From the IMG/VR virus record IMGVR_UViG_2541047852_000003: a DNA stretch of 16,149 nucleotides, one strand, 5' to 3'. Positions within the stretch are counted from its first letter, which is position 1; every line of letters begins with the position of its first letter. The position numbers and the translations under genes were made by a program. This stretch comes from a virus. Lineage: Duplodnaviria; Heunggongvirae; Uroviricota; Caudoviricetes. Below are positions 202 to 16,149 of the stretch, piece after piece. The notes beneath the pieces were generated by a model. That model was not told the DNA's origin. It searched no databases and saw only the letters and a list, made by a program, of their open reading frames with translations.

Positions 202-246
202 GAGTGCTATCTCCGAATAGGGAATCGAACCTGCAAATCAGGCAAT

Positions 247-268
247 AAAAAACCGCCATCAGGCGGCT
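247..268 (-). terminator. Intrinsic terminator-like hairpin (CCGCC-ATCA-GGCGG) followed by U-run on minus strand
   Basis: Stem 253-257/262-266 with A6 on plus strand at 247-252 (U-run on minus transcript); overlaps stop of the 55-aa ORF. Confidence 0.45.
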
Positions 269-426: not shown

Positions 427-498
427 TTATCATCTCCATAAAACAAAACCCGCCGTAGCGAGTTCAGATAAAAGAAATCCCCGCGAGTGCGAGGATTA

Positions 499-1632: not shown

Positions 1633-1633
1633 A

Positions 1634-1933: not shown

Positions 1934-2466
1934 TGGTTGCCTCCTTTGCGAAGCTGGGCAGCAAAGTCAACTAACCACTCAGTCATTTCAACCTTCCCTA
2001 CCAGGTCTGAACCAGGGTGCATACAGCAATCACTCTGCGCCGCTTTGAAATCCTTATACTCATATTCTTGGGCCACCAGATTTTTTGCAGCTTCTATAGC
2101 AGCATCCACCCCCTGCGCCCGCACTTCAGCCAGAAAAGCATCGGTGGCTGGGGTTTCAGTAACATCATCTTCCCATTCGCTAAACTCCTCACGACAAAAG
2201 TCATTAAATTCCTTCTCAGATTGCTTAAGTGAGGTATTTTCAGCAGCCATCTTCGCGCATTTAGCCTCAAGGTTATCAATCGTGATTCCAGCAGAACTAC
2301 ACTCCCGCAACGCCGTTTCCAGTTTTGATTCAAGTTCACCGAACTTACGGACAAGGTATTCAGCGTTTGTTTCGTTAACCTTTAAATCACTTGGGATGCA
2401 TTTACCTTTCAGAAAACCATCCATCTCAATTAGTGACATTTGTTTCATTTCTTCCCACTCCGCCAC
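1930..2466 (-). CDS. Hypothetical acidic coiled-coil early protein (Ea22-like?); alternative ATG start at 2446-2448 with GGAG upstream
   Basis: 178-aa ORF in track; internal ATG (MKQMSLIEM...) has the better SD, so the true start may be 2448. Confidence 0.45.
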   Translation of the reverse strand: MAEWEEMKQMSLIEMDGFLKGKCIPSDLKVNETNAEYLVRKFGELESKLETALRECSSAGITIDNLEAKCAKMAAENTSLKQSEKEFNDFCREEFSEWEDDVTETPATDAFLAEVRAQGVDAAIEAAKNLVAQEYEYKDFKAAQSDCCMHPGSDLVGKVEMTEWLVDFAAQLRKGGNQ

Positions 2467-2542
2467 ATCGCATTCAGATATTTGTTGTCATTAACAGAAC
2501 CGAAACTCTTTCTCTTAAGCAAGTCCTCTCATGGTAAATTCC

Positions 2543-2839
2543 TCAGTCATTACTGATAGCGCCATAGCGTGAGCGGTAATTACGCAGGCGCGGGTCGATA
2601 TATTCAGGGAAGTGGGTATATGTGGCTTTGCGGAATGGTCGGATTGATGTCTGGTAAATTCGCTCGCGTTCTTCTTTCTCTGCAAGCCATATACAGTGGC
2701 GAAATTCCTTTTCCTCTTTCGTTTCCTGCGGTAGAGACATTATTCGATCGTAGTTTTTTCTGAATTTATCCAGCACCTCCGATACGGAATTGCCGGAACA
2801 GCGGCGCGGGTCATCCGCACCATACAAAGGCGCTGGCAT
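2543..2839 (-). CDS. Hypothetical protein (98 aa)
   Basis: ORF with AAGGA upstream of ATG; no recognisable motif. Confidence 0.45.
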   Translation of the reverse strand: MPAPLYGADDPRRCSGNSVSEVLDKFRKNYDRIMSLPQETKEEKEFRHCIWLAEKEERERIYQTSIRPFRKATYTHFPEYIDPRLRNYRSRYGAISND

Positions 2840-2862
2840 AATTAAATCCTTATTTTTCTAAA

Positions 2863-3246
2863 TCAGAATGGGATGGAATCGTCGTATTCAGGATTATTTT
2901 GATGATTGCTACTTTGCTGCTGTTGGCTGTTTCCTGAAGTTGCAAATCCAATCTTTGCATTCAGTAATTCAAGAGTGATTGATTGACCATTTTGCCCCTG
3001 ATAAACATCAACCCTGATGTTTTCTCCGGTAATTTCTACAATGCCTCCTTCAACCAGAACGCTACGATAGTAATCCGCTTGCGCTCCCGGCTTGGCAAAT
3101 ACAACGGCGCTGTAGTTTGTCCATTCTTTCTTTTTTGTCTGGCGATCGTAATACTGAACGCCAGCACGGATGTTGAATCCGATATTTTCCCCGCCCTGAA
3201 ACTCTCTTGCGGGTTTGTTTAGTCTTACTGTAATCGAATGTGCCAT
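2863..3246 (-). CDS. ssb: Single-stranded DNA-binding protein (SSB)
   Basis: Start at internal ATG 3244-3246 (TAATG overlap with erf stop, AAGGGG SD); OB-fold-like N-terminus and acidic C-terminal tail ending DDSIPF, characteristic of SSB. Confidence 0.8.
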   Translation of the reverse strand: MAHSITVRLNKPAREFQGGENIGFNIRAGVQYYDRQTKKKEWTNYSAVVFAKPGAQADYYRSVLVEGGIVEITGENIRVDVYQGQNGQSITLELLNAKIGFATSGNSQQQQSSNHQNNPEYDDSIPF

Positions 3247-3851
3247 TAAGCAGTTGCCCCTTCTAATTCGTCTCGTCTGATGTTGTAAACGTCCTGCGCT
3301 TTGTGCTGCTCCGGCGTCCCTTCGAGCATCTTCCACGCTTTGGCGAACGCCTGTTTAAGCTCTTCTACGGTGTTTTTCTGCATTGCTGCGTCAGTGAATG
3401 CTTTTAGAACCTGTTCAGGTGTAAGTGATGGTTTTGATTGCTTTGCTGCTGCGTTCTGCTGATGTTTATGCTCGTCTGTATCTGCATCTTTCGCATCATC
3501 AATGCCGAACAAACCATTGAGGCAATACTTGCGTGCATAAGAGCTTGTAGCTCCCGTAACTTGTGCAGAATCCATTCCTTTCTTGCTTTCTTCCTCTCGT
3601 GCAAGAGCGGTTGCCGTATGACTGTTTTCGCCATCGGTAATAGTTGCCGTGGCTTTCACGTAATACCGATCACCAATCAACACAACTTCATCGCTGATTG
3701 ATAAAAACAGACCGTTCAGTAACGGCTTAACGCCTTCAAGAATATCTTCGCAGCTTCTGTATTTATATTTGCCGAATGAGTTGTACTGATTCTTTGGCGC
3801 GTTCAGATTCTCCTGAATAGCTGCCAGTCTTGCGTAAAATTCTTTGCTCAT
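3246..3851 (-). CDS. erf: ERF-family single-strand annealing recombinase
   Basis: 201 aa from ATG 3849-3851; N-terminus MSKEFYARLAAIQENLNAPKNQYNSFGKYKYRSCEDILEGVKPLL matches the ERF pattern; followed by SSB as in many lambdoid recombination modules. Confidence 0.65.
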   Translation of the reverse strand: MSKEFYARLAAIQENLNAPKNQYNSFGKYKYRSCEDILEGVKPLLNGLFLSISDEVVLIGDRYYVKATATITDGENSHTATALAREEESKKGMDSAQVTGATSSYARKYCLNGLFGIDDAKDADTDEHKHQQNAAAKQSKPSLTPEQVLKAFTDAAMQKNTVEELKQAFAKAWKMLEGTPEQHKAQDVYNIRRDELEGATA

Positions 3852-3952
3852 ATGATTGCTCTCAGAATGGACACGGCCCAAGGAAATAACGCTGATTTAA
3901 TACTTCGACTCGGGACAAATTAAGGCATACCCGCATTCCTTCGCGGTCACCA

Positions 3953-4111
3953 TTATGGCGATACCAGAGAGCTTTCTGCGTGTACATGCGTCTCTGTAAC
4001 TTGCTCTCCTTCACTGTGGTTGCAAGTGACATGAATATCTCCTTCGTTACCGATTAATTCTTTTATCTGACGAATGAATTCTTCGTCTGACCAGTTATCC
4101 GTAAAACTCAT
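3953..4111 (-). CDS. Small protein in kil position (52 aa), start overlapping cIII stop (ATGA)
   Basis: Positional analogy to lambda kil immediately downstream of cIII; no sequence-level recognition. Confidence 0.3.
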   Translation of the reverse strand: MSFTDNWSDEEFIRQIKELIGNEGDIHVTCNHSEGEQVTETHVHAESSLVSP

Positions 4112-4278
4112 GGACGGCCTTGTTGTTTCAAAATATCCCAAAGCTTTTCGAGCAAGCTTTTCATTCTTGGTTGTTTAAAGTCTGCTCCGGTTAAAATGTT
4201 TTTTCGTGAATGCTGTACCGATAAAATCGGGTTGAAAGGGCGAACCGATGCCGCCCCTGCAATAGCGAACTGTTGCAT
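4108..4278 (-). CDS. cIII: cIII-like protein (FtsH/HflB inhibitor)
   Basis: Start at internal ATG 4276-4278 with AAGGAG SD; MQQFAIAG N-terminus and KSLLEKLWDILKQQGRP resemble lambda CIII (MQYAIAG...ESLLERI...LIDILNQPGVP). Confidence 0.6.
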   Translation of the reverse strand: MQQFAIAGAASVRPFNPILSVQHSRKNILTGADFKQPRMKSLLEKLWDILKQQGRP

Positions 4279-4344
4279 AGGATGCTCCTTCTGTTTGATT
4301 GCATAACGAAAACGCCTCGAGTGAAGCGTTATTGGTATGCATAT

Positions 4345-4368
4345 AAAAAAGCCCTCACACTGGAGGGC
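4345..4368 (-). terminator. Intrinsic terminator (tL1-like): GCCCTC-loop-GAGGGC followed by U6 on minus transcript
   Basis: Hairpin 4351-4368 with A6 on plus strand 4345-4350; lies between the 156-aa gene and cIII. Confidence 0.55.
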
Positions 4369-4472
4369 AAAGAAGATTTCCAATAATCAGAACAAGTCGG
4401 CTCCTGTTTAGTTACGAGCGACATTGCTCCGTGTATTCACTCGTTGGAATGAATACACAGTGCTTATTCGTA

Positions 4473-4943
4473 CTAATAAAACACCCAGTTTTCTGTTTCT
4501 TGGTTGTGTCCAAAGTTATATTCAATACCTGGTGTTGATGTATCAATATTCTTCATCCCATCAACAAGAGTTGATACAACAGCCAAATCTTGTTTGATTC
4601 TCATCAAATGGTATTTCTTCCGGCGCAATAAACTTTCAATGGCAAGTTTCTTCGTCGGGAATGCAAAAGATCTTTCTGCATTTTTTGCTACTTTCTTAAT
4701 TGCATATCTATTTCTCCTTTGTTTCCATTCCTGTAACCACTGATTTGGTGCTGGTTTAAAATTAACAATCCAATGCGCAGGAACCAACCATGCATAATGC
4801 TCTGTCTGATGAAAAGCTATATATTGAAGTGCGAATATTTTGATTCCATCTTCTTCAACTGTCGCTTGGAATCTCCAGAAAACAGGCATTCCATCATGTT
4901 CAGTTTCTGATTCAGGAAAAGGTACGCTCCATGATTTTGTCAT
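4473..4943 (-). CDS. Hypothetical accessory protein (156 aa) directly downstream of N
   Basis: ORF with GAGGTG SD; occupies the ral/sieB position of lambda; no recognisable family. Confidence 0.5.
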   Translation of the reverse strand: MTKSWSVPFPESETEHDGMPVFWRFQATVEEDGIKIFALQYIAFHQTEHYAWLVPAHWIVNFKPAPNQWLQEWKQRRNRYAIKKVAKNAERSFAFPTKKLAIESLLRRKKYHLMRIKQDLAVVSTLVDGMKNIDTSTPGIEYNFGHNQETENWVFY

Positions 4944-4951
4944 ATATCACC

Positions 4952-5251
4952 TCAAATAAGTGGTTTGCTGCCTAATTTCATTTTCTGGCGACCAACACAA
5001 GTCACACCCATTTCACTGCGTGGCTTGCGGTAGTAAATACGATTCTGTTTACTCTCGACTTCATCTGCCTTCTTGCAGCGAAGGATTCCGAGTGATGCTG
5101 CTTTATCCGCTCTGACGCAACCAGAGAGCTTTAGCGCAATTTTTCGCGCCAGTCGCTGTTCTTGCATCGCCTGTTCACGTTGAGCCTGTCTGCGTGCTCT
5201 GCGGCGATTTCTGGCGTTATCGTCAGCCAGATATGTAATGACTACTGTCAT
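4952..5251 (-). CDS. N: N-like transcription antitermination protein
   Basis: Start at internal ATG 5249-5251 (GGAGG SD); arginine-rich motif DNARNRRRARRQAQREQ; C-terminus RIYYRKPRSEMGVTCVGRQKMKLGSKPLI matches lambda N C-terminus (RTWYSKPGERGITCSGRQKIKGKSIPLI). Confidence 0.8.
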   Translation of the reverse strand: MTVVITYLADDNARNRRRARRQAQREQAMQEQRLARKIALKLSGCVRADKAASLGILRCKKADEVESKQNRIYYRKPRSEMGVTCVGRQKMKLGSKPLI

Positions 5252-5563
5252 GTTGACCTCCGATGAAACAACTTTGGAATTGATAGTGATTGCAAAGTGG
5301 TTTCTGGCCCCTCGAACTGAGGGGCAGAAAGAGCATCTCGCCACCTAATAGGTCGATGCTCGGATCGAGAGATTTAATTAACCTCGGTTTTGAAGTTATG
5401 CATTCACATAAATCCTCCTACCTCTTGTGCAGCTTTCTTGAATATGGTGGCGGCTGCATAACGCCTATGGAATTGACTTTGGCGGTGACGCGCCGGGTGC
5501 TTATCTTCCGGTTGCCGTCGTGCAGCTGCACTTCACGTCACCCCAAAGCCAACTACTCTTTGG

Positions 5564-5605
5564 TTCCCGCATTTCGGCGGGACAATCCCATCAATGTTAA
5601 AGAGC
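5564..5605 (-). promoter_or_regulatory. nutL site: boxA (GCTCTTTAACA) and boxB hairpin (TCCCGC-CGAAAT-GCGGGA) on minus strand
   Basis: Reverse complement of 5595-5605 gives GCTCTTTAACA; 5564-5582 gives a boxB-like stem-loop identical in loop to the nutR copy at 6721-6740. Confidence 0.65.
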
Positions 5606-5651
5606 CTGCCAATCTGTTCCGTTTGGCTTCCAGCGTCCTGCTGATGGCTTA

Positions 5652-5730
5652 AATTTAAGATCTCTTTAATTAATGGTCAAGAGCATTTTTGAAGAAAACT
5701 TAAATTTTCTTTCGTAACTTAAGTTTGGCT
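5652..5730 (-). promoter_or_regulatory. pL promoter (-35 TTGACC at 5675-5680, -10 TAAATT at 5652-5657, minus strand) with overlapping TTAAG-type OL operator repeats
   Basis: 17-bp spacing; ATTTAAG-N4-CTTTAA-like operator overlapping -10; further TTAAG repeats at 5697-5729. Confidence 0.5.
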
Positions 5731-5743
5731 TTGATTTTTAAAG

Positions 5744-5772
5744 GAAATAAAAAAAAAGGGGCGAATGCCCCC
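5744..5772 (-). terminator. Intrinsic terminator immediately after c2 stop (GGGGC-GAAT-GCCCC followed by long U-run on minus transcript)
   Basis: Hairpin 5758-5771; A-run 5744-5757 on plus strand. Confidence 0.6.
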
Positions 5773-6423
5773 TTATGGAAGGTTTGCTAGTTTTGCATCG
5801 ACAACTACGCCGATGATTTTGCAGTTTCCGTTGATCTCGATCATCGGATATTGTGGGTTAAGTGGTTTTAGAAACTTCCTGCCTGCATCAATAACTAACT
5901 TCTTGAAAGTTGCCTCGTTTTCTCCTTCGAGCTTTGCAACTACCAGTTTCCCGTTACGCGGCTCTACTTCAGGATCGACGAGTATTATCATTCCTTCAGG
6001 GATACTGAGACCGGCCGGAGCCGTCATTGAGTCTCCCTTCACGTCCAACCAAAACGAATCTTCTGAACAGTCTACGGTTGTATCGTACCAGTTATCTATT
6101 GCACGCTTATGATATGGTTCTACAGCTTCCATCCAGCATCCTGCGCTCACCCAGCTAATCAGAGGGTATGACCCTCTTGGATCATGCCTACTGTGATAGG
6201 CAATGTTTGAAAGACTTTCCTCTCCTTTCATCAGATAGTCAGGGGAACACTTCAACGCATTAGCCAGGGCGAGAAGATTCTCTCCATTTGGCTCTGTCTC
6301 AGAGCGTTCCCACTGAGATATGGCAACATTAGACACGCCGACCATCTTTCCAAGTGCGGCCTGCCTGATCTTGAGTTCTTTTCTCCGAGCGCGAATGCGC
6401 TCTCCCATCAATTGAGTTTTCAT
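5773..6423 (-). CDS. c2: Prophage repressor, P22 c2-type (N-terminal HTH, C-terminal LexA/S24-like autocleavage domain)
   Basis: 216 aa; QAALGKMVGVSNVAISQWE HTH; C-terminal S24-like domain; near-identical to my recollection of P22 C2 (MNTQLMGERIRARRKKLKIRQAALGKMVG...). Confidence 0.85.
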   Translation of the reverse strand: MKTQLMGERIRARRKELKIRQAALGKMVGVSNVAISQWERSETEPNGENLLALANALKCSPDYLMKGEESLSNIAYHSRHDPRGSYPLISWVSAGCWMEAVEPYHKRAIDNWYDTTVDCSEDSFWLDVKGDSMTAPAGLSIPEGMIILVDPEVEPRNGKLVVAKLEGENEATFKKLVIDAGRKFLKPLNPQYPMIEINGNCKIIGVVVDAKLANLP

Positions 6424-6503
6424 AGTTAAGACATCTTAAATAAACTTGACTTAAGATTCCTTTAGTGGATAATTTAAGTGTTCTTTAATTTCGGAGCGAG
6501 TCT
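6424..6503. promoter_or_regulatory. OR region: three TTAAG-N4-CTT(T)AA operator-like imperfect palindromes (6426-6439, 6451-6465, 6473-6488), pR (-35 TTGACT 6446-6451, -10 GATAAT 6468-6473), divergent pRM presumed
   Basis: Operators and promoter hexamers read directly; arrangement matches P22/lambda-type OR. Confidence 0.65.
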
Positions 6504-6689
6504 ATGTACAAGAAAGATGTTATCGACCACTTCGGAACCCAGCGTGCTGTAGCTAAAGCGTTAGGCATTAGCGACGCAGCAGTCTCTCAGTGGAAGGAAG
6601 TCATCCCAGAGAAAGACGCCTATCGACTGGAAGTCGTTACAGCTGGCGCCCTGATGTATCAAGAAAGCGCTTACCGCAAAGCGGCATAA
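6504..6689 (+). CDS. cro: Cro repressor, P22-type
   Basis: 61 aa, HTH QRAVAKALGISDAAVSQW; GGAG SD; first gene of pR operon divergent from c2. Confidence 0.8.
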   Translation: MYKKDVIDHFGTQRAVAKALGISDAAVSQWKEVIPEKDAYRLEVVTAGALMYQESAYRKAA

Positions 6690-6695
6690 GCAAAT

Positions 6696-6740
6696 TGCTC
6701 TTTAACAGTCATGGTCCTCATTCCCGCCGAAATGCGGGAA
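6696..6740 (+). promoter_or_regulatory. nutR site: boxA (TGCTCTTTAACA 6696-6707) and boxB hairpin (TTCCCGC-CGAAAT-GCGGGAA 6721-6740)
   Basis: Read directly; same boxB as nutL; followed by hairpin GCGCAT-AAGTTG-ATGCGC at 6747-6764 (possible tR1-region structure). Confidence 0.65.
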
Positions 6741-6782
6741 TACAACGCGCATAAGTTGATGCGCATAACTTCTTATTTGTTA

Positions 6783-6820
6783 AGGAAATACTTACATATG
6801 GTTCGTGCAAACAAACGCAA
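6783..6820 (-). promoter_or_regulatory. pRE (cII-activated promoter) with TTGC-N6-TTGC CII-binding repeats (minus strand, 6807-6820)
   Basis: Reverse complement of 6807-6820 is TTGCGTTTGTTTGC; flanking sequence CATATGTAAGTATTTCC matches the lambda pRE region as I recall it. Confidence 0.6.
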
Positions 6821-7091
6821 CGAGGCTCTAAGAATCGAGAGTGCGTTGCTTAACAAAATCGCAATGCTTGGAACTGAGAAGACAGCGGAAGCTGTGGGCG
6901 TTGATAAGTCGCAGATCAGCAGGTGGAAGAGGGACTGGATTCCAAAGTTCTCAATGCTGCTTGCTGTTCTTGAATGGGGTGTTGTCGACGACGACATGGC
7001 TCGATTGGCACGACAAGTTGCTTCGATTCTCACCAATAAAAAACGCCCGGCGGCAACCGAGCGTTCTGATCAAATACAAATGGAATTTTAA
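6798..7091 (+). CDS. cII: Transcriptional activator CII (lambda-type)
   Basis: 97 aa starting MVRANKRNEALRIESALLNKIAMLGTEKTAEAVGVDKSQISRWKRDW..., essentially lambda CII; true ATG at 6798, not the upstream in-frame ATG of the track ORF. Confidence 0.9.
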   Translation: MVRANKRNEALRIESALLNKIAMLGTEKTAEAVGVDKSQISRWKRDWIPKFSMLLAVLEWGVVDDDMARLARQVASILTNKKRPAATERSDQIQMEF

Positions 7092-7102
7092 CAACATCCA
7101 AC
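7038..7102 (-). ncRNA. oop: OOP-like antisense RNA to cII 3' end (terminator 7038-7063; putative pO -10 TATAAT at 7109-7114)
   Basis: Minus-strand hairpin CGCUCGG-UUGCCG-CCGGGCG plus U6, same as lambda oop terminator; a perfect TATAAT on minus strand upstream; -35 is weak (TGGATT). Confidence 0.4.
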
Positions 7103-7113
7103 GAGGTAATTAT

Positions 7114-7386
7114 ATGCGAAACAAAGGCTTTAATCCACCTGATACACACAAAGAAGCTAAGCGTTTGCGCTTCCTTCGTTCCATTGATGAAAGAACTCAA
7201 ATCTCTTTTGTGAAAGTTGCCAGAACTGAGCTTCTGAAGGCTGAGGCGAGGGCGTTGCTCCCGTCTCTACCAAAAGAGGAGGGATATACGTTCATTCCAA
7301 ACGCATTTCTGGAAAAGCTTCTCAAAGAAGACATATCCGTAAGTCAGTTTAACGATGTTCTTAAGGTCTTTCGTCAAGGCAGGTAG
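7114..7386 (+). CDS. Hypothetical protein (90 aa) between cII and the replication initiator
   Basis: ATG 7114 with ACGAGGT SD; basic, helical-looking; no recognisable family. The track ORF extends upstream into cII and is rejected. Confidence 0.5.
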   Translation: MRNKGFNPPDTHKEAKRLRFLRSIDERTQISFVKVARTELLKAEARALLPSLPKEEGYTFIPNAFLEKLLKEDISVSQFNDVLKVFRQGR

Positions 7387-7388
7387 TT

Positions 7389-8336
7389 ATGAGCAATACA
7401 GCAAAAATCTACGATTTCAGCGCCGCACACGAGCGCAGGAGCAACAGGATGGAGAACCAGAAAACTGGTTACATTCCGTTGTACCGGAGCATTCTGAAAC
7501 AGTCATGGGCGAAAGATGTTTATCTTCGCACCCTGTGGGAAAACCTTCTCCTGAATGCCGCCAGAAAGCCATACAAAGCGAATTTCAAAGGTCATGAATG
7601 GCATCTGCAACCCGGTCAACTGGTTGTGACAGCAGCTGATTTAGGTCTTCAGTTATGCGACAGACATGGCAAGCCAGCAAGCCGTGATCAGGTTGAGCGG
7701 ATGCTTCAGGTTTTTGTGAAAGAGGGGATGATCTCCATTGATGGAGAGAAGCAAAAAGGCCGTGTGATAACCATCACAAATTACCATGAATATGCTCAAA
7801 AAATGGACAATTTACCCGCACATGAAGCCGCACAAACAACCGCACATGATGCCGCACATGATGAAGCCAGCAATAGCGCGGCTTTCAGCGTACATGCCGC
7901 ACATGAAAGCGCACATGAAGCCGCACAAACAACCGCACATCATGAACAAGAAGGTATTAACAAGAATATAAATAATACCCCCCTACCCCCCAATGGGGGA
8001 GGCGATGGGCAGGTTAAACCTGAACGTCGCAAGGCAGAACGAATCGACTACGAATCCTTCCTGAACGCCTACAACACCGAAGTCGGTGACAGACTGCCAC
8101 ACGCTGTTGCGGTCAACGAGAAACGAAAACGCCGCCTGAAGAAAATCATCCCGCAACTGAAAACGCCAAACGTGGACGGTTTCAGAGCGTATGTCAGGGC
8201 GTTTGTGCATCAGGCCAAGCCGTTTTACTTCGGAGACAACGACACGGGCTGGACGGCTGATTTTGATTACCTGCTGAGAGAAGACTCGTTAACGGGAGTT
8301 CGGGAAGGGAAGTTTGCAGACAGGGGGATTGCATGA
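7389..8336 (+). CDS. Replication initiator, lambda O / P22 gp18-like, with internal origin
   Basis: 315 aa; N-terminus [10 protein letters not shown] resembles lambda O (MTNTAKILNF); iterons and AT-rich tract lie inside the gene; followed by helicase gene with ATGA overlap. Confidence 0.7.
7815..7979. repeat. Origin of replication: about six direct iterons of the form CCGCACATGA(A/T)G plus two CCGCACAAACAACCG copies, followed by a 30-bp AT-rich tract (7950-7979)
   Basis: Repeats read directly at 7817-7945; AT-rich AAGGTATTAACAAGAATATAAATAATA follows; classic lambdoid ori architecture within the initiator gene. Confidence 0.7.
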
Positions 8337-9709
8337 GACAGGATATCGAAGCGAGCGTTATCGGTGGCCTGCTGATTGGTGGATTAACTCCAACCGCCAG
8401 TGACGTTCTTGCAACGCTGGAGCCGGAAGCGTTTTCAATTCCGCTCTACCGGAAAGCCTTCGAGGTTATCCGGAAGCAGGCGAGAAACAGAAACCTAATC
8501 GACGCGCTGATGGTTGCCGAGGCGTGCGGAGAGGAGCATTTCACGTCAATCCTGATGACCAGCAAAAACTGCCCGAGCGCCGCAAACCTGAAGGGATATG
8601 CCGGAATGGTCGCGGATAACTATCACCGCCGTCTGGTGCTGGAAATCATGGATGAAATGCGTGAACCAATCCAAAGCGGAACCATCGACGCATCGAGTCA
8701 GGCGATGGATGAACTTGTAAAACGTCTCTCAGCCATCAGAAAGCCCCGTGACGAGGTTAAACCTGTACGGTTAGGGGAAATCATCACCGACTACACTGAC
8801 ACGCTTGACAGGCGTCTGAGGAACGGAGAAGAGTCCGATACCCTGAAGACCGGAATCGAAGAACTTGATGCCATCACCGGAGGGATGAACGCGGAAGACC
8901 TGGTGATAATCGCTGCTCGTCCTGGTATGGGGAAAACCGAACTGGCGCTGAAGATTGCCGAAGGCGTTGCAAGCCGCGTTATTCCTGGTTCTGACGTCCG
9001 GCGCGGGGTATTGATTTTCTCAATGGAAATGAGCGCATTGCAGATTGCAGAGCGAAGCATTGCCAACGCCGGGAGGATGTCGGTTAGCGTACTGCGAAAT
9101 CCTGCATCGATGGATGACGAGGGCTGGGCACGTGTTGCTAACGGCATGAGTCAGCTTGCAGATTTGGATGTATGGGTAGTCGATGCCTCGCGATTATCGG
9201 TCGAAGAAATACGCTCAATCGCAGAACGGCACAAACAGGAAAATCCAAACCTCTCACTCATCATGGCGGATTATCTTGGCCTGATTGAGAAGCCGAAAGC
9301 AGACCGCAACGACCTCGCAATTGCTCACATCTCCGGAAGCCTGAAGGCGATGGCGAAAGACCTGAAAACACCGGTTATTTCCCTGAGTCAGCTTTCACGC
9401 GATGTTGAGAAGCGACCAAACAAACGCCCGACAAACGCAGATTTGCGTGATTCAGGAAGCATTGAACAGGACGCAGACTCAATCATCATGCTCTATCGGG
9501 AAGCGGTATATGACGAGAACAGTAGCGCCGCGCCATTTGCTGAAATCATCGTGACGAAAAACCGTTTTGGCTCACTTGGTACGGTTTACCAGCGGTTCTG
9601 CAACGGACACTTTGTTGCATGTGACCAGGATGAAGCCAGACAGATTTGCACAGCATCAAATGCACCTGCTGCGCGTGGCAGACGATATGCACAAGGGGCT
9701 GACGTATGA
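8333..9709 (+). CDS. Replicative DNA helicase, DnaB family (P22 gp12-like)
   Basis: 458 aa; Walker [16 protein letters not shown], Walker B-like [21 protein letters not shown] arginine-finger region. Confidence 0.85.
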
Positions 9710-9789
9710 CCATCTACATCACTGAGCTTGTAACAGGCCTGCTGGTAATCGCAGGCCTTTTTATTTGGGGGAGGGTAAATCGTGGTTGA
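9706..9789 (+). CDS. Possible 27-aa hydrophobic peptide ([27 protein letters not shown])
   Basis: ATG overlaps helicase stop (ATGA); single hydrophobic helix; too short to call firmly. Confidence 0.2.
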
Positions 9790-9988
9790 GTTGATTTTTT
9801 CTGCATTGAGGATTCTCGGTGCTATGTGGATGGTGGCGACGTTCATTGTGGTTGCCAGCAGTTTTGTCCGGTTGGTAGGCGAAGGTAAAGACCTGGTTGG
9901 TGTGCTTTTCGGTAGCATTTTTCTGTGGGTGATTATCGGTGTTATGCCTGTTGTCGTAGCAAAAGTGGCGTGGCGTTTTGTGAGTTAA
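9782..9988 (+). CDS. Small membrane protein (68 aa, two predicted TM helices)
   Basis: GTG start preceded by GGGGAGGG SD; strongly hydrophobic sequence. Confidence 0.45.
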   Translation: MVELIFSALRILGAMWMVATFIVVASSFVRLVGEGKDLVGVLFGSIFLWVIIGVMPVVVAKVAWRFVS

Positions 9989-10000
9989 TCGGAGGTTAAT

Positions 10001-10183
10001 GTGAGCAAGTGCCAAAAGTGCAATAACACAGGAATGTGTGATAGCGGAGGTTCTACTCCTTGGGGAGAGCCGATTTTTATTGAATGTGACTGCCTTATGA
10101 AAGATGACGAAAGCAGATGCCAGTTTGAAGAGAGTTGGTTACGACGTGGGGGGCGAATCTTCAGACCTTATCCGTTACCCTGA
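10001..10183 (+). CDS. Cysteine-rich small protein (CxxC...CxC, zinc-ribbon-like); probably 5' part of a frameshifted gene
   Basis: GTG start with GGAGG SD; MSKCQKCNNTGMCDSGG...ECDC motif; frame changes at the G6 tract 10148-10153. Confidence 0.4.
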   Translation: MSKCQKCNNTGMCDSGGSTPWGEPIFIECDCLMKDDESRCQFEESWLRRGGRIFRPYPLP

Positions 10184-10418
10184 AAATCACCATGAAATTG
10201 GCAGTGGTGATATTGGTGGTCAATACGTGATGGACGATGTTCAAGGCCACTGGCAAACGTGGCAGGCATCGAGAGCAGCTATTGAAATTGAGCTGCAAAA
10301 GCCAAAGAAAGGCCCACTTCCCGGTGATTATCACATTGGCTATGACTCAGGTGCAGAATCGCAATACGAAAGCGATGTAGAGGCTATCCGCGCCGCTGGA
10401 ATCAAAGTGAAGGAGTGA
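10104..10418 (+). CDS. Hypothetical protein; probably 3' part of the same gene as 10001-10183 (frames meet at G6 tract)
   Basis: Overlaps previous ORF by 80 nt in another frame; no convincing independent start before internal ATG 10230. Confidence 0.3.
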   Translation: MTKADASLKRVGYDVGGESSDLIRYPENHHEIGSGDIGGQYVMDDVQGHWQTWQASRAAIEIELQKPKKGPLPGDYHIGYDSGAESQYESDVEAIRAAGIKVKE

Positions 10419-10606
10419 GCATGAGTCGACGAAGTAGCTTTTTGGGGTTTGTAATATTCCTGTCCTGCACTGGTTACATCGTAATCTGGTCAATTTCGAA
10501 CATTGACCGTGGCGGGAAATATCTCATTGTAATGTTCTTTCCTTTGTTTCTTGGGTGGTACGCCGCAAGGTTGCTGGAAGAATGGGGTTACAGGCATAAA
10601 AAATAA
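10415..10606 (+). CDS. Small membrane protein (63 aa)
   Basis: ATG overlaps upstream stop (ATGA); two hydrophobic segments; ends 7 bp before IS629. Confidence 0.45.
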   Translation: MSMSRRSSFLGFVIFLSCTGYIVIWSISNIDRGGKYLIVMFFPLFLGWYAARLLEEWGYRHKK

Positions 10607-10667
10607 AGGAGTATGAACCGCCCCGGGAATCCTGGAGACTAAACTCCCTGAGAAAGAGGTAAACAGG

Positions 10668-10994
10668 ATGACTAAAAATACTCGTTTTTCCCCCGAAGTC
10701 CGTCAGAGGGCGATTCGTATGGTTCTGGAAAGTCAGGGCGAATATGACTCACAGTGGGCGGCAATTTGTTCCATTGCCCCAAAGATTGGCTGTACACCGG
10801 AGACTCTGCGTGTCTGGGTACGCCAGCATGAGCGGGATACCGGAGGCGGTGATGGCGGGCTCACCACCGCTGAACGTCAGCGTCTGAAAGAGCTGGAACG
10901 TGAAAATCGTGAACTGCGCCGCAGTAACGATATCCTTCGCCAGGCTTCCGCTTATTTTGCGAAGGCGGAGTTCGACCGCCTCTGGAAAAAATGA
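10668..10994 (+). CDS. IS629 transposase OrfA (HTH/leucine-zipper part)
   Basis: 108 aa [21 protein letters not shown]...; A6 run at 10986-10991 is the likely -1 slippery site for OrfAB fusion. Confidence 0.85.
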
Positions 10995-11881
10995 TGCCAC
11001 TGCTGGATAAGCTGCGTGAGCAGTACGGGGTCGGACCGCTATGCAGCGAACTGCATATTGCCCCGTCAACGTATTACCACTGTCAGCAACAGCGACATCA
11101 TCCGGATAAACGCAGTGCCCGTGCGCAGCGCGATGACTGGCTGAAGAAAGAGATACAGCGCGTATACGATGAAAATCACAAGGTATACGGTGTGCGTAAA
11201 GTCTGGCGTCAGTTGTTACGGGAAGGTATCAGAGTGGCCAGATGCACTGTGGCACGTCTCATGGCGGTTATGGGACTTGCCGGTGTTCTCCGTGGTAAAA
11301 AGGTCCGTACGACCATCAGCCGGAAAGCCGTTGTCGCAGGCGACCGCGTAAACCGTCAGTTCGTGGCAGAACGTCCTGACCAGTTGTGGGTGGCTGATTC
11401 TACTTACGTCAGCACATGGCAGGGGGTCGTCTATGTGGCGTTCATCATTGATGTGTTTGCCGGATACATCGTGGGGTGGCGGGTCTCATCGTCTATGGAA
11501 ACGACATTTGTGCTGGATGCTCTGGAGCAGGCGTTATGGGCCCGTCGACCGTCCGGCACAGTCCATCACAGTGATAAAGGTTCTCAGTATGTATCGCTGG
11601 CCTACACACAGCGGCTTAAGGAAGCCGGATTACTGGCATCAACAGGAAGTACAGGCGACTCGTATGACAACGCGATGGCGGAGAGCATCAATGGCCTTTA
11701 CAAAGCGGAGGTAATACACCGTAAGAGCTGGAAAAACCGTGCAGAAGTGGAACTGGCCACACTCACGTGGGTGGACTGGTATAACAATCGACGATTGCTG
11801 GAAAGGCTGGGCCATACTCCTCCGGCAGAAGCAGAAAAAGCTTATTATGCTTCCATCGGAAACGATGATCTGGCAGCCTGA
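10991..11881 (+). CDS. IS629 transposase OrfB (DDE catalytic domain)
   Basis: 296 aa with rve-type DDE region (WVADSTYV...HHSDKGSQY...[15 protein letters not shown]). Confidence 0.85.
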
Positions 11882-12050
11882 GTTCACAGATAAAACACTC
11901 TCCAGGAAACCCGGGGCGGTTCAGACCTGCACTCTTCCTTTGCCCTGCTACCGATAGCATCCTTTAACGACTGCGGCATCCTTACCAAAATCTTACTTAT
12001 TTCTTTCTCCATGTTACCCTCCACGCAAACAACTCTTTTCGAATACAAAA

Positions 12051-12104
12051 GATAGCAAAGTGAGTATATCTAGTCAAAATTTTTTTGCATACACTTTGCT
12101 ATCA
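12051..12104. promoter_or_regulatory. 12-bp inverted repeat GATAGCAAAGTG / CACTTTGCTATC flanking a 30-bp AT-rich spacer upstream of the RHH gene; candidate operator/promoter
   Basis: Arms at 12051-12062 and 12093-12104 are exact reverse complements; spacer holds TATATC and TTGCAT hexamers. Confidence 0.4.
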
Positions 12105-12126
12105 AATTGAATACCAAAGGTGTTAT

Positions 12127-12375
12127 ATGGCAAAGGGTGTGTCAATTTCTCCAACTACGGTAAGAATCCCTGAATCTTTACGCGAGGCTCTTGCTGTCAG
12201 AGCATCAAAAAATGGTCGCTCTGTTAACTCCGAGATCGTCATGATTTTGCAAGCCGCGATTGATGAAGATAGGTCGCCAAAGTCAGTTGAGTCATTTGCT
12301 CAGCAAGAAGCTGATAAATTCAAAGAGGCGCTACTTGAGACGCTAAAGACCATGTATGCTAAGGATGAAAAATAA
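12127..12375 (+). CDS. Arc/MetJ-type ribbon-helix-helix DNA-binding protein
   Basis: 82 aa from ATG 12127 (AAGGTG SD); RIPESLREALAVRASKNGRSVNSEIVMILQAAI matches the Arc-family RHH pattern. Confidence 0.6.
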   Translation: MAKGVSISPTTVRIPESLREALAVRASKNGRSVNSEIVMILQAAIDEDRSPKSVESFAQQEADKFKEALLETLKTMYAKDEK

Positions 12376-12911
12376 TGCTGCACACAATTCATTTCTTATG
12401 CCCTGTTAACACTGCCACTGTTGGGCAACTTCAGAACCACTGTCTCACCGCATTATCTCAAGGCGCAACTGAATTAAATATCCATATATCAAGTCAGGGA
12501 GGGGAAACTGCTGCTGGCTTTACTGCGTATAACTTTCTTAAGTCACTCCCTGTTACCGTTAGAACTCACAACATAAGCAATGTTGAATCCATAGCTAATA
12601 TCGTTTTCCTGGCTGGCTCAGAACGTTTCGCAAACCCATTATCAAGATTCCTGTTACATCCTCTATTATGGTGCTTTGCCTCCCCAGCCGCCGACCATGC
12701 CAGATTGAGAGAGTACGGGAAATGCCTCGATAACGATCTTGATCGCTTCGTTGAGACGTTCAATATCGACATCGGAACCCATATTAGGTGGGCATCCCTG
12801 ATAGCAGACTCGACCATTTTGGATGCTAACAAGGCTCTTGAGCATGGCATAATTAATTCCATAAAAACTGCAAGGCTGGCATCCAATCAGGCAAACTGGT
12901 GGGTTGTTTGA
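12375..12911 (+). CDS. Minimal ClpP-fold (S14-like) serine peptidase
   Basis: 178 aa; by-eye alignment to E. coli ClpP core: NIHISSQGGETAAGF vs YLYINSPGGVITAGM; Ser in ESIANIVFLAG aligns with catalytic Ser of GQAASMGAFLLTAG; His in RFLLHPL aligns with RVMIHQPL; start overlaps RHH stop (TAATG). Confidence 0.6.
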   Translation: MLHTIHFLCPVNTATVGQLQNHCLTALSQGATELNIHISSQGGETAAGFTAYNFLKSLPVTVRTHNISNVESIANIVFLAGSERFANPLSRFLLHPLLWCFASPAADHARLREYGKCLDNDLDRFVETFNIDIGTHIRWASLIADSTILDANKALEHGIINSIKTARLASNQANWWVV

Positions 12912-12936
12912 TGGGTAAATCATGATTACTCCTTAT

Positions 12937-12961
12937 AAAAAACCCACCTGACGGTGGGTTT
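12937..12961. terminator. Bidirectional intrinsic terminator between convergent operons (CCCACC-TGAC-GGTGGG with A6 upstream and T-rich downstream)
   Basis: Hairpin 12943-12958; U6 on minus transcript, UUU on plus transcript. Confidence 0.55.
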
Positions 12962-13409
12962 AGTCAAACATAGTGTTTCTAAAGTCTCTCGCATACCCTG
13001 CTAACACTCTCATTCTATTATGATTGTTAGCAGACATGTGAGCTACAGGATGAAAAAGAGCAATCAATGAATACCTGTTCTCATCAAAAAGATTTTGTGC
13101 ATAAACGAGAGCGGTATTGGATGTTTTATGCCACTGCAACTTTTGCGGTGTGCTGATATCTGTGCCATTTTTTATTGGCTCAAATTTATTTTCACCAATT
13201 GCTAAATGAAGGTGCATAAGGCCTGCATCTTCAATATCAGGAGGTCGATGATAAGAGGTGTCTCTGCCAAAATAGCTGGGCAACGTTCCCGTAGACTTGT
13301 AGATGATAAAATCATCTACAAGTGTTTGTTTTAAATCAGGAAACTCAACAAAAACCGGGGAGAAAAAATAGTCAAAACTATCCTGATTATATTCCACGGT
13401 TACTTGCAT
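12960..13409 (-). CDS. Putative YafO-like toxin (ribosome-dependent mRNA interferase family), tentative
   Basis: 149 aa; motifs FIIYKSTGTLPSYFGRDTSY, MHLHL, TALVYAQNLFDE, LIALFHP recalled as YafO-family features; assignment from memory only. Confidence 0.4.
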   Translation of the reverse strand: MQVTVEYNQDSFDYFFSPVFVEFPDLKQTLVDDFIIYKSTGTLPSYFGRDTSYHRPPDIEDAGLMHLHLAIGENKFEPIKNGTDISTPQKLQWHKTSNTALVYAQNLFDENRYSLIALFHPVAHMSANNHNRMRVLAGYARDFRNTMFD

Positions 13410-13417
13410 GTTTTACC

Positions 13418-13984
13418 TCAGTGGAAGTTACCAGAGTGAAACACACGAGTCCCGTGCTCAGCAAGCGCACGCAAACCAGCCATATCTACGGAACTATCAA
13501 AAACAACCGGAACACATGAGCGTTGTTTAATAAGACTATTCAGGTTGGTTACGGCAGATCTGGCATCAGCAACAACGATATAGATATCTCTTGCGATCTC
13601 TTTAAAATCAGCAGAAGCTTCTTTGAATACCGATTTCATTGCCCCTTCAAGTCCTCTCAATTGATGCTCTATCAATCGAGACTTTTCTGGTTCAATGATA
13701 GACAACACATTGTCTACATTCTCATCGGTAGCGTTTGCAAGAACACGATAAGCGTATTTCAGCATTCGAGACAATTCTTTAATCGAAGACACCGCCTCAT
13801 GAAGCTCATCATTAGCCCGTTCACTGCTGAATGAGGATTGATGGTAAGCGTGCTGAACGTTATCAGTAACAACCACCTCACAACTGAACGCAGAAGCTTG
13901 CTGTAATAGCAAACCTATTGCGACTCCAGCTTTGGCAGCGTTCAAGCTAAACATTTCATCAATCCCATTAGTCTCATTGCTCAT
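13418..13984 (-). CDS. Hypothetical protein (188 aa) upstream of and co-transcribed with the YafO-like gene; possible atypical antitoxin/partner
   Basis: Start at ATG 13982-13984 with AAGGAGG SD (internal to the track ORF); stop 8 nt before the downstream start; no recognisable domain. Confidence 0.5.
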   Translation of the reverse strand: MSNETNGIDEMFSLNAAKAGVAIGLLLQQASAFSCEVVVTDNVQHAYHQSSFSSERANDELHEAVSSIKELSRMLKYAYRVLANATDENVDNVLSIIEPEKSRLIEHQLRGLEGAMKSVFKEASADFKEIARDIYIVVADARSAVTNLNSLIKQRSCVPVVFDSSVDMAGLRALAEHGTRVFHSGNFH

Positions 13985-14159
13985 ACAAACCTCCTTCTTA
14001 TCGGAGATTATCAATAGCTATGCATCCATTGAATACACGCTATGCGCAATAAGTTTACGTCACGTGATATCATTATGCAACCACCGTTCTATCACCGACT
14101 AACTTTACTCCCACTCCTATACATCATCTGGTATCCTGCGCAAAACTAAGGAGGTTGGT

Positions 14160-14510
14160 GTGAATGCTCAGTCTGTCATCATGGTTTTCCTTGGGCTGAT
14201 TGTCGCAAAACTATATCCAGACTGGTGGAAAGGGGCATTAGCTACTGTCGCCATCTATTTGCTTTTATCCATCGTTAAGCGATCACTCGCTGAGACCGTA
14301 AATCAAGCAAAACGTTTCTCATTTAAGAGTTTAATAAACTATGTTACTGGGCTTATTTTTTGCCTTTCAATTCTGATCGCTTCGGCTTTTTTGCCCGTAT
14401 CAATAGCTAATTTTTTTGGCGCACCATATGAGGTAGGTTATCTATTCTCTGTTTCCTGTCTTGCCATTGCTCTTCTTTACCTGTGGACGAGATCAAAGAA
14501 TAAAAATTAG
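14160..14510 (+). CDS. Integral membrane protein (116 aa, 3-4 predicted TM helices)
   Basis: GTG start 5 nt after AAGGAGG; hydrophobic segments VIMVFLGLIVAKL, ATVAIYLLLSIV, GLIFCLSILIASAFLPV, YLFSVSCLAIALLYLW. Confidence 0.5.
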   Translation: MNAQSVIMVFLGLIVAKLYPDWWKGALATVAIYLLLSIVKRSLAETVNQAKRFSFKSLINYVTGLIFCLSILIASAFLPVSIANFFGAPYEVGYLFSVSCLAIALLYLWTRSKNKN

Positions 14511-14527
14511 CCATCCGTGGCTGCCAG

Positions 14528-15990
14528 TTATTGAGCTTCTTTTTGTGATGCCTGTGCGACTCTGGTGAGCGATTGTGTGACCGTACTGATCGCTCTGTCA
14601 TATGCTGTGCTACCTTTTGGCGTATTTGCCAGACGTAACAAGGCATTTCGTATAACAGGGCTTTCGTATGCCTTCGCAGCTCCTCCTACGACACCAGCAG
14701 CAGGAACAACAAACGCAGCCGTTTTTAGCATCCCCGCTAATACTGCTGCGTTTATGATGCCACCACCAACTAACAATCCATAAAGCTGCTGACCATTTAA
14801 GTTTTGAACGTTCGCTTTTGCCGCGTGTCTTGTATCGTTGAGGTATTTAATAACGCCGTCCAGTTCCTTTCCATGTACGCCTTTAAAGAAAGTTGCTGAT
14901 TGCTTCCTGTTCCGGTGTAACGCATTAATAAACTTTTCAACACTAATATTTCCAGACGGATCAGTCGCCTTATCTACAGCATTCTGAACTATGGCTGCTC
15001 GTGCGTTTTGCCTACCATTGTCATCCAGAAGCCTGTAAAGCTGAGAACGTTCTGATGGGTTTTGGCTAAAAACGAGTTTTGTTACATCCTCAGGTGTAGC
15101 CTTGCCGCTGGCTATTGCCTTTTGAACGCGCGTTCTTCCCATCATGTCATTGAATCTAGCCCATGAGCGATCAACCCTAGACATATTGGCAGCTTCTTCT
15201 GAGCCTAGTTTTTGGGATACTGCTTTTTTCATATCCGCTGTATATGCCTTGTAGACAATATCGCTGGCTTTCTGGAGCGTGTCTTTATCAACAGTCTCGT
15301 TTGAATTCATGAACCGCTTTCGAAGGTCAGTTCTGTTTTCTCTCGCCAGACGCAGGTCATTGGGTCCGCTGGTGATATCGTCTTTAAATTGCTGCAAGAC
15401 TTTTACCGCGGCTCTATCCTGAGATTTGCCCGGGCGGCTTAACACGGCAATCTGATTGTCGATAGCTTTTACCGTGTTTGAGAGATCGACAGGGGTATCC
15501 CCCATAGCGTCAATTATGCGGTTATATCGCTTTCCTGCTGCCTCAATGAATTTTTGTTGCCCTTTAGTCGCAGATTCATAAAGCTGTTTATCAGAAATGC
15601 CACCCAGACCATCGCTAAATGTTCTGACTAAATTTTCTCGTGCTTGTTGTTGATTCAGCCGATTCTTACCGGTTCCAAAAAAAGGAACTCTTTCGCCTAA
15701 TGTCTGAGCCTGACTCTGCATAAAGGTTTTATCTTTCAGCGTGTCACTGGTCATTAACGGCAGGTTTCTTTCCGACGCAAAATCGACAGCAGCCTTTGCT
15801 TCCGGTGACATCTCACCGCGAACAGCCCTGGAAACCGCACTAACTGTATTTTCCAGCCCCTTGCCAACACCACCAATGCCAGCAGAAATTACCGTTTGTG
15901 CAGGATCAATATCTTCTCCGCCAGCAAGGCTGGTGCCACCCTGTAGTGCTAAATCTGTAGCAGCTGATTTCCCTATGGCACCAAGCACCG
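14528..15990 (-). pseudogene. 5'-truncated gene remnant (at least 486 codons) interrupted by IS629; helical protein with C-terminal Gly/Ala-rich hydrophobic segment
   Basis: Reading frame stays open from 15988 through the IS629 terminal repeat to a stop at 16046-16048; no credible start or SD at the junction. Confidence 0.5.
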
Positions 15991-16149
15991 TGAACCGCCC
16001 CGGGTTTCCTGGAGAGTGTTTTATCTGTGAACTCAGGCTGCCAGATCATCGTTTCCGATGGAAGCATAATAAGCTTTTTCTGCTTCTGCCGGAGGAGTAT
16101 GGCCCAGCCTTTCCAGCAATCGTCGATTGTTATACCAGTCCACCCACGT
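15991..16149 (-). mobile_element. Second IS629 copy, inverted, partial (continues beyond window)
   Basis: 15991-16149 is the exact reverse complement of 11765-11923 of the first copy (right IR and orfB 3' end). Confidence 0.85.
16033..16149 (-). CDS. IS629 OrfB C-terminal fragment (partial at window edge)
   Basis: Reverse complement encodes ...[38 protein letters not shown] with stop at 16033-16035. Confidence 0.8.
   Translation of the reverse strand, partial: TWVDWYNNRRLLERLGHTPPAEAEKAYYASIGNDDLAA

Follow-up and report, generated by a model that had tools for sequence, protein, structure and literature searches.

The described elements closest to the locus studied here are CUS-3 (CP000711) of Escherichia coli K1 RS218 and the prophages of strains S88, APEC O1 and UTI89. 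The likeness lies in an argW/intS/torI module, a neuO gene with AAGACTC repeats, an endosialidase tailspike, an ant gene and a P22-like gene order, traits that are also supported by earlier work (PMC2951348). In P22, the immI region (mnt-arc-ant) is located between gene 16 and tailspike gene 9, adjacent to the sieA slot. In CUS-3 itself, the slot from ant to gene 16 holds two mnt genes, two hypothetical genes and hkcB.

The insertion sequences at this locus resemble the IS629/IS1203/IS3411 isoform group, whose members are 1,310 bp long, have TG...CA ends and 25-bp inverted repeats, carry orfA and orfB with an ALIL pseudoknot, and are flanked by 3-bp duplications when intact. Many copies in this group lack a matching duplication owing to later rearrangement. 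In O157:H7, IS629 produces target duplications of 3-4 bp, and these match at only 21 of 47 sites (PMC3271280). Recombination between IS copies is also a feature of "grounded" prophage decay, which resembles the present case in its inverted copies, flipped segment, split duplication and lost late region.

The window analyzed here, a stretch of 16,149 nt, is a contig within scaffold KE701237.1 of E. coli KOEGE 32 (66a). We conclude, with a probability of roughly 80%, that it represents the remaining right-hand portion of a P22-like prophage of the CUS-3 type, located at argW and broken by IS629-type elements, that the block between the IS copies is the prophage's own immI-type region, that 18.7 kb were lost, and that the segment between the copies was inverted. 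Compared with CUS-3, this prophage is a defective remnant from which all late genes are missing. It differs from the IS629 cases of the O157:H7 literature in that the host belongs to a K1 extraintestinal lineage and in that two IS alleles about 2% apart occur within one prophage.

Two IS629-type elements with unmatched flanks

The features of the window are collected in Table 1. The source is a single short-read draft scaffold in which three IS copies are represented as N gaps. Prefixed coordinates refer to S88 (L001), AH19K002 (L004) and the KOEGE 32 scaffold (L005).

Table 1. Features of the KOEGE 32 prophage window
Feature	Position	Strand	Basis or comment
Early region of CUS-3-type, P22-like prophage	1-10613	+	Ends 4 bp upstream of expected ninB start
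torI	1-201	-	Annotation
erf-type recombination genes, cI/cro/cII	Inside 1-10613		Annotation
Replication genes	7389-9709		Annotation
phiTE_015-family ORFs	10104-10606		Annotation
GTA, target triplet of nin-site IS	10611-10613		Left copy only kept; S88 empty site has single GTA; AH19K002 has GTA/IS/GTA
Complete IS629-type element (IS3 family), allele a (copy 1)	10614-11923	+	1,310 bp, TG...CA ends
IRL of copy 1	10614-10638		TGAACCGCCCCGGGAATCCTGGAGA
orfA of copy 1	10668-10994	+	ORF listing
ALIL frameshift pseudoknot in copy 1	10949-11065		Rfam RF01497, 120 bits
orfB of copy 1	10991-11881	+	ORF listing
IRR of copy 1	11899-11923		TGAACCGCCCCGGGTTTCCTGGAGA
GAC, one copy of arc-insertion duplication	11924-11926		S88 L001 6001-6003 = GAC
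arc repressor gene, 5' fragment, 89 nt, IS-cut	11924-12012	-	S88 Arc CDS L001 5937-6089; block starts at L001 6001
Mnt-like Arc-family ribbon-helix-helix repressor gene	12127-12375	+	Pfam Arc PF03869, E = 9.5e-11; S88 annotation
ClpP-like serine protease gene, 178 aa	12375-12911	+	Pfam CLP_protease, E = 2.2e-11; PHROG 94
YafO-family toxin gene, 149 aa	12960-13409	-	Pfam YafO_toxin, E = 3.4e-22
188-aa gene upstream of yafO-like gene	13418-13984	-	PHROG 8416, E = 2e-96, family without functional annotation
109-aa small hydrophobic protein gene, in P22 sieA slot	14181-14510	+	S88 annotation
gp16-family DNA-ejection protein gene, 3' 1,463 nt	14528-15990	-	S88 gp16 CDS; PF26808 Phage_P22_gp16
IS copy 2, IRR-proximal 159 bp	15991-16149	-	100% reverse complement of 11765-11923

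A preliminary description of the window had reported a complete IS629 element and an inverted, partial second copy. The pair was confirmed as a repeat of 159 nt with 100% complementarity. The word "partial" is accurate for the window and does not describe the element, because the window stops at L005 9840, the edge of a run of N (8320-9839) inside copy 2. This assembly gap of 1,520 N is IS-sized.

The terminal inverted repeats of copy 1 are 25 bp long and identical at 23 of 25 positions. Its 404-aa orfA/orfB product has HTH_Tnp_1, HTH_21 and rve domains, as expected of a DDE transposase. RefSeq labels this protein only "IS3 family transposase," and the assignment to IS629 at the sequence level rests on the published primers IS629-insideF and IS629-insideR, which match copy 1 at 22/22 and 19/20 positions, respectively. 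Copy 1 differs from the nin-site IS of AH19K002 at 1 of 1,310 positions and from the other IS copies compared at 26-28 positions. At each of the 27 diagnostic sites, which extend to IS position 1082, it has allele a. The visible right end of copy 2 includes no allele-diagnostic site; the scaffold sequence beyond the gap shows allele b at positions 33, 93 and 94, and the interior consists of Ns.

Copy 1 is found in the context ...GGAGTA/IS/GACCTG..., and copy 2 follows ...CACCG. The preliminary description correctly stated that the GTA and GAC flanks of copy 1 do not match and that the left flank of copy 2 is the partner of neither; among the triplets GTA, GAC and CCG, there is no matching 3-bp duplication within the window. 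Intact insertions do carry such duplications (AAC/AAC and GGC/GGC in FY26), as does the nin-site IS of AH19K002, a simple insertion between two GTA triplets in a collinear prophage. When an IS629-type copy has no target duplication, this is usually a sign of later recombination.

The block is resident prophage DNA

The block between the IS copies (11924-15990; 4,067 bp) is 100% identical to the arc/mnt-like/ClpP-like/YafO/gp16 region of S88, APEC O1 and other genomes in which this region is free of IS elements. In the P22-like prophage of S88, it has ant/arc on one side and gene 16 on the other, and both of its ends lie within genes, one in arc and the other in gp16. At least 80% of the block is carried by 45 of 5,426 complete E. 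coli genomes, every time on the chromosome, and it was found on none of 72,556 plasmids. The adjoining early region is 99.98% identical to AH19K002 (L004 40803-30191) and 99.94% identical to S88.

The annotations of S88, AH19K002 and the KOEGE 32 scaffold together show the argW-intS...torI module, the neuO repeats, the endosialidase tailspike and the P22-like late genes of the CUS-3 type, with the late genes present in the relatives and deleted in KOEGE 32. AAGACTC heptanucleotide repeats are found with neuO. Across the segment comprising neuO, the endosialidase gene (siaK1) and ant, CUS-3 and the S88 prophage are 98.8% identical. CUS-3 gives no megablast match to the block.

These comparisons bear on the preliminary description in several ways. 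It had called the block non-lambdoid, whereas the genes are typical of P22-like lambdoid phages and correspond to an immI-type region. It had also proposed that a toxin/protease cargo was captured or delivered; this idea fails, because IS-free prophages of this type contain the identical sequence as resident DNA. It had further held that a closely related prophage with the same gene order and no IS elements would make the block ancestral, and comparison with IS-free relatives comes near to that outcome.

Deletion and apparent inversion

Comparison with S88 reveals that 18,688 bp are absent, extending from ninB to approximately codon 183 of gp16 and including all Q, lysis and virion genes. The earlier claim that the nin/Q region is gone therefore holds. 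The remaining gp16 gene lacks approximately 183 N-terminal codons, and its truncated product is 486 aa long. A match to this protein led to the source scaffold; Arc-IS fusion peptides of 42 and 54 aa had no database record.

The preliminary description had suggested extending the sequence to the right of position 16149, and this was done on the source scaffold. Past copy 2, the flank corresponds to S88 L001 5469-6003 (ant', a 57-aa gene and the 3' part of arc) and ends in GAC. It overlaps the start of the block (L001 6001-6003) by exactly 3 bp. Thus, the 5' part of arc at the inner end of the block and the 3' part outside copy 2 are halves of one gene that have a 3-bp duplication in common. 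One GAC abuts the IRR of copy 1, and the other (L005 8223-8225, outside the window) abuts the IRL of copy 2. The target duplication in arc is thus divided between the two IS copies as reverse complements, a hallmark of inversion by recombination of oppositely oriented IS copies.

As assembled, the block runs opposite to both of its flanks when S88 and AH19K002 serve as references. Positions 1-11924 map to the minus strand of the AH19K002 locus and positions 11924-15991 to its plus strand, and the far flank returns to the outer orientation. The IS-mediated rearrangement that had been suspected is thus visible as a block inverted with respect to both neighbors. Accordingly, the block is apparently flipped, as read from one short-read scaffold. 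Compared with typical IS-IS inversions, no chimeric IS is visible here, and the inversion is backed by one draft assembly only. A search for mosaicism in copy 1, intended to place the crossover, revealed none at the 27 diagnostic sites. Because copy 1 is pure allele a up to position 1082, any crossover must lie within IS positions 1083-1310, a 228-bp stretch that is too long for short reads to span.

The following history would produce this arrangement. An allele-a IS may have entered 4 bp upstream of ninB, duplicating GTA, and an allele-b IS may have entered arc, duplicating GAC. The 18.7 kb from ninB through the first ~183 codons of gp16 would then have been lost, either because a third IS, located in gp16, took part in recombination or because of an IS-adjacent deletion. 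The two IS copies that remained, in inverted orientation, would have recombined and flipped the 4.07-kb segment that they enclose. Either of the last two steps may have come first, and the product would read nin side / IS / arc' ... gp16' / IS (inverted) / arc''.

Alternative explanations

Inversion between inverted IS copies leaves every IS-flank junction unchanged, and the junctions fit the non-inverted isomer equally well. Since the junctions read the same whichever way the block lies, a single short-read scaffold is the support for the inversion itself; more generally, the orientation of DNA between inverted IS copies is unverifiable from junction sequences in short-read assemblies. It is therefore conceivable, although rather unlikely, that the same decayed prophage with its 18.7-kb deletion carries the block in the original orientation, and that the assembler was misrouted through the 228-bp stretch common to the IS copies. 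The true order would then be arc'' / IS (GAC/GAC) / arc' ... gp16' / IS allele a / nin side. This reading needs one step fewer and is in keeping with the sameness of all four IS-flank junctions in both isomers, with the N gaps in other IS copies of the scaffold, and with the alleles, since two unrecombined copies would show pure a in copy 1 and b at positions 33, 93 and 94 of copy 2. B20123 also has an analogous, non-inverted gp16'/IS/helicase' deletion junction. However, the path from the nin side through the IS to arc' was assembled without a gap, presumably by using mate pairs, and a crossover in the longest stretch of perfect identity, at the 3' end, is not unlikely (17-29% by a rough estimate from segment lengths).

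The remaining alternatives are much less likely. A single inversion of ~22.7 kb from ninB to arc that kept the late genes, together with a third IS insertion in gp16, requires the fewest steps (three insertions and one inversion) and fits everything visible in the window. We consider it highly improbable because copy 2 is followed by arc''-ant'-tailspike'-neuO-intS-yfdC rather than by the N-terminal part of gp16, and because the gap of 1,520 N is far below 18.7 kb. Replicative intramolecular transposition of one IS would yield inverted copies, flipped DNA and a reverse-complement target duplication, such as the observed GAC and GTC. Its likelihood is nevertheless minimal: the copies are different alleles (a at 27/27 sites in copy 1, b at the three sites in copy 2), and the far end of the block should be the donor's flank, ninB, yet is gp16'. 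IS3-family elements, moreover, move by copy-out-paste-in via a circular intermediate and do not form cointegrates. A composite-transposon-like unit that captured foreign toxin and protease genes, carried them into the prophage and displaced nin/Q is just as improbable. Such a unit would be consistent with an inverted IS pair around ~4 kb of DNA whose GC content is below that of the early region (40-46% versus 47-55%), with genes for a YafO-family toxin and a ClpP-like protease. However, the block matches IS-free genomes perfectly, both arc and gp16 are broken internally at its ends, and the remainder of arc lies just beyond copy 2. The outer flanks of the unit, GTA to the left of copy 1 and GTC to the right of copy 2 (L005), form no duplication, and the unit was seen on no plasmid and in no other genome. 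Neither the hybrid pair of copy-1 junctions nor the gp16/IS junction was found among the 5,426 complete E. coli genomes; a lone 91.5% match in two pieces represents a different event.

Annotation of the accessory genes

The rearrangement is a known, ordinary kind of prophage decay and not gene delivery. The toxin and protease genes flanked by the IS copies might be taken for cargo; they are correctly annotated as part of the immI-type accessory region of a CUS-3-type prophage left by IS-driven decay, and this annotation keeps the block from being mistaken for a composite transposon or for a horizontally delivered toxin module. The region resembles P22 immI in position, in its divergent Arc-family repressors next to ant, in its prophage-expressed accessory genes and in the presence of gene 16. 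It differs in that the predicted accessory genes are, in place of sieA, those for the ClpP-like protein, the YafO-like protein with its 188-aa putative partner, and the 109-aa hydrophobic protein.

The 188-aa protein has no Pfam family match and is a possible partner or antitoxin of the YafO-like toxin. No family match to the 109-aa protein was obtained in Pfam and PHROG searches, and PADLOC gave no credible defense-system match among the block proteins. We regard it as very unlikely that the 4-kb block between the inverted IS copies could be a reversible, recombination-driven invertible segment, with the accessory genes and the nearby neuO selected as domesticated defense or surface-modification functions and the lytic genes purged. 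In that case, read-through starting in the IS or at early promoters might make expression of these genes depend on block orientation.

An inverted repeat of 75% complementarity (I3; 893-920 and 14495-14522) was set aside as a chance match. Within the block, the Mnt-like stop codon and the start of the ClpP-like gene share 1 nt.

A native segment of a P22-like prophage

A preliminary description read the block between the two inverted IS copies as a toxin/protease cargo delivered to the prophage. However, the same genes occur in the same order, free of IS elements, in Escherichia coli S88, APEC O1, and others. In a megablast search of 5,426 complete E. coli genomes, window 11924-15991 matched S88, APEC O1, and many others at 100% identity and uninterrupted by an IS. 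At least 80% of the block was present in 45 of these genomes, and every copy was chromosomal; a plasmid search found none. The S88 counterpart (locus L001) lies inside a P22-like prophage at tRNA-Arg/intS. From the tailspike gene onward, the order there is ant, a 57-aa gene, arc, a divergent Mnt-like gene of the Arc family, a ClpP-like gene, the gene of a YafO-family toxin with a 188-aa gene before it, a 109-aa gene, and gp16, which encodes a DNA-ejection protein. For the block, these assignments agree with Pfam and PHROGs, and PADLOC gave no credible match for its proteins. Aligned to S88, the block begins 89 nt into arc and stops 1,463 nt from the gp16 3' terminus; both ends lie mid-gene and not at gene boundaries. 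The supposed cargo is native prophage DNA, whichever way the block is oriented.

The neuO-endosialidase-ant segment of S88 is 98.8% identical to that of the E. coli K1 phage CUS-3, and the S88 prophage has the intS/torI module described for KplE1, CUS-3, HK620, and Sf6 (PMC2951348). In the slot between ant/mnt and gene 16, however, CUS-3 holds other small genes than S88 and the window prophage do, and no match to the block was found in CUS-3. This slot is therefore a place where P22-like phages carry varying accessory genes. Within the block, the start of the 178-aa ClpP-like gene and the Mnt-like repressor gene's stop codon overlap by 1 nt. The 188-aa gene (PHROG 8416, no Pfam family) precedes the toxin gene, where there is no YafN-type antitoxin.

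Features of the window
Feature	Coordinates	Strand	Remark
Replication-protein gene	7389-8336
12-bp-periodic repeat	7817-7944		five copies, CGCACATGAAG/CCGCACAAACAA motifs
phiTE_015-family gene	10104-10606		two ORFs, 104 aa + 63 aa
IS copy 1	10614-11923		1,310 bp, TG...CA ends
Overlapping ORFs of IS copy 1	10668-10994 and 10991-11881
Terminal inverted repeats of IS copy 1	10614-10638 and 11899-11923		25 bp
Inverted repeat of IS copies 1 and 2	11765-11923 and 15991-16149		159 nt, 100% complementary
Block	11924-15990
Mnt-like and ClpP-like genes	12127-12911	+
188-aa and YafO-family toxin genes	12960-13984	-

Two IS629-type copies and their junctions

A repeat finder run on the window detected both the terminal repeats of copy 1 and its pairing with copy 2. 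Because of its size, its TG...CA ends, its two ORFs, an internal ALIL frameshift pseudoknot (Rfam RF01497, 120 bits), and its matches to two published IS629-specific primers (22/22 and 19/20; PMC3271280), copy 1 is probably an IS629-isoform element of the IS3 family. Copy 1 lies between GGAGTA and GACCTG, and CACCG precedes copy 2, which bears out the earlier report of an IS629 pair lacking matching flanks (GTA, GAC). Simple insertions in relatives give 3-bp duplications (AAC/AAC and GGC/GGC in FY26). Matching duplications were reported for only 21 of 47 IS629 sites in O157:H7 (PMC3271280).

Window 1-11924 is 99.98% identical to the AH19K002 prophage (locus L004), a collinear prophage in which the same IS occupies the same site, between the phiTE_015-family gene and ninB. 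That insertion is framed by a perfect GTA/GTA duplication, and its sequence departs from copy 1 at one of 1,310 positions; in S88 the nin site is empty and GTA occurs there once, 4 bp before ninB starts. The other IS copies examined in these prophages (L002-L004) share a set of 26-28 differences from copy 1, none of them beyond IS position 1082. These two forms, alleles a and b, are ~2% apart, with 27 differences clustered at IS positions 33-243 and 680-1082. Among the copies compared, allele a occurs only at the nin site (copy 1 and AH19K002). In AH19K002, the tip of the IS right end recurs as 26 bp immediately after a complete IS, next to the truncated ant gene (L004 10851-10876).

The far flank of copy 2, which the preliminary description had named as a check, is present on the E. 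coli KOEGE 32 (66a) scaffold KE701237.1 (locus L005), which matches window 4528-16149 at 100% identity. Its sequence breaks off into a 1,520-N gap exactly at the window end, so the truncation of copy 2 stems from the assembly and is not a trait of the genome. Beyond the gap are 94 bp of an IS left end, with allele b at positions 33, 93, and 94. Outside it follows S88 sequence L001 5469-6003, comprising an N-terminal ant fragment, the 57-aa gene, and the 3' part of arc (arc''), ending in GAC. Because arc'' ends and the block starts in the same GAC (L001 6001-6003), one IS insertion in arc produced the GAC duplication. The two triplets now lie apart, one beside the right end of copy 1 and one beside the left end of copy 2, and are reverse complements of each other in the window orientation. 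In the assembly, the block runs opposite to the DNA on either side of it when compared with S88 and AH19K002. This is the classical footprint left when inverted IS copies recombine and invert the DNA between them.

Late-region deletion and block orientation

Relative to S88, 18,688 bp are absent, from ninB through the nin, Q, lysis, terminase, portal, coat, and ejection genes to gp16 codon ~183; the suspected loss of the nin/Q region is thereby confirmed. A truncated gp16 product of 486 aa is on record for KOEGE 32 (66a). The scaffold gap is IS-sized, and past arc'' the scaffold runs to tailspike fragments, neuO, intS, and yfdC; therefore, the late genes are not there. The deletion stands regardless of block orientation. 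Of the IS-mediated rearrangement proposed earlier, the deletion was thus found and the inversion is seen in the assembly only, but delivery of cargo does not hold, because the block is native at 100% identity in IS-free genomes.

In the most probable history, an allele-a IS would have inserted upstream of ninB with duplication of GTA, a step shared with AH19K002, and an allele-b IS would have entered arc and duplicated GAC. The DNA from ninB as far as the N-terminal part of gp16 was lost, either through recombination involving a third IS, located in gp16, or through IS-adjacent deletion. Before or after this loss, the 4.07 kb enclosed by the two inverted copies that remained would have flipped. 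Scrambling and grounding of a prophage by IS629-type elements is a known kind of event, here in a known prophage type.

Capture or delivery by a composite transposon is ruled out by the native context, the split arc, the unlike outer flanks (GTA versus GTC), and the occurrence of the unit nowhere else: no IS-flanked unit was found among complete E. coli genomes and plasmids. What lies beyond copy 2 excludes a single 22.7-kb inversion that kept the late genes. A replicative inversion driven by one IS is excluded too, since the copies are different alleles and the other block end is a gp16 fragment, not ninB.

Inversion between inverted IS copies leaves the IS-flank junctions unchanged and alters connectivity through the IS bodies alone. 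A non-inverted isomer, made by simple arc insertion plus deletion, therefore fits every junction equally well, and it resembles the junction in B20123 where an IS joins gp16 and helicase fragments. Because copy 1 has allele a at 27/27 diagnostic sites and copy 2 has allele b at 3/3 visible sites, a crossover, if any, fell within IS 1083-1310, 228 bp of identity that is too long for short reads to bridge; the sequence comes from a single draft scaffold, with gaps in place of the other IS copies. The 17-29% estimated for a crossover in this interval comes from segment lengths only and is no measurement. We consider the non-inverted isomer rather unlikely, and retain inversion of the block as the preferred reading.

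Other features of the prophage

Two more IS629-type copies with N-gap interiors lie outside the window in the tailspike/ant region (L005 3397-5284 and 6040-7692). They sit at deletions of ~1.4 kb and ~1.0 kb relative to S88 (L001 2273-3686 and about 4442-5470 missing). Because none of the four IS copies in the KOEGE 32 prophage keeps a matching target duplication, the whole prophage is under IS-driven decay. The defect of the phiTE_015-family gene is older than the IS events, because the S88 and AH19K002 annotations also give this gene a frameshift.

The neuO heptanucleotide repeat AAGACTC has eight copies in KOEGE 32 (L005 2666-2721) and in AH19K002 (L004 8810-8865), and 34 in S88 (L001 1360-1597); by the divisible-by-three rule for repeat number (quoted in PMC13001214), neither 8 nor 34 is in phase. 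The 12-bp-periodic repeats inside the replication-protein gene look like iterons of a lambdoid origin embedded in an O-like gene. The window opens exactly on the final base of torI's stop codon, at the right end of the prophage.
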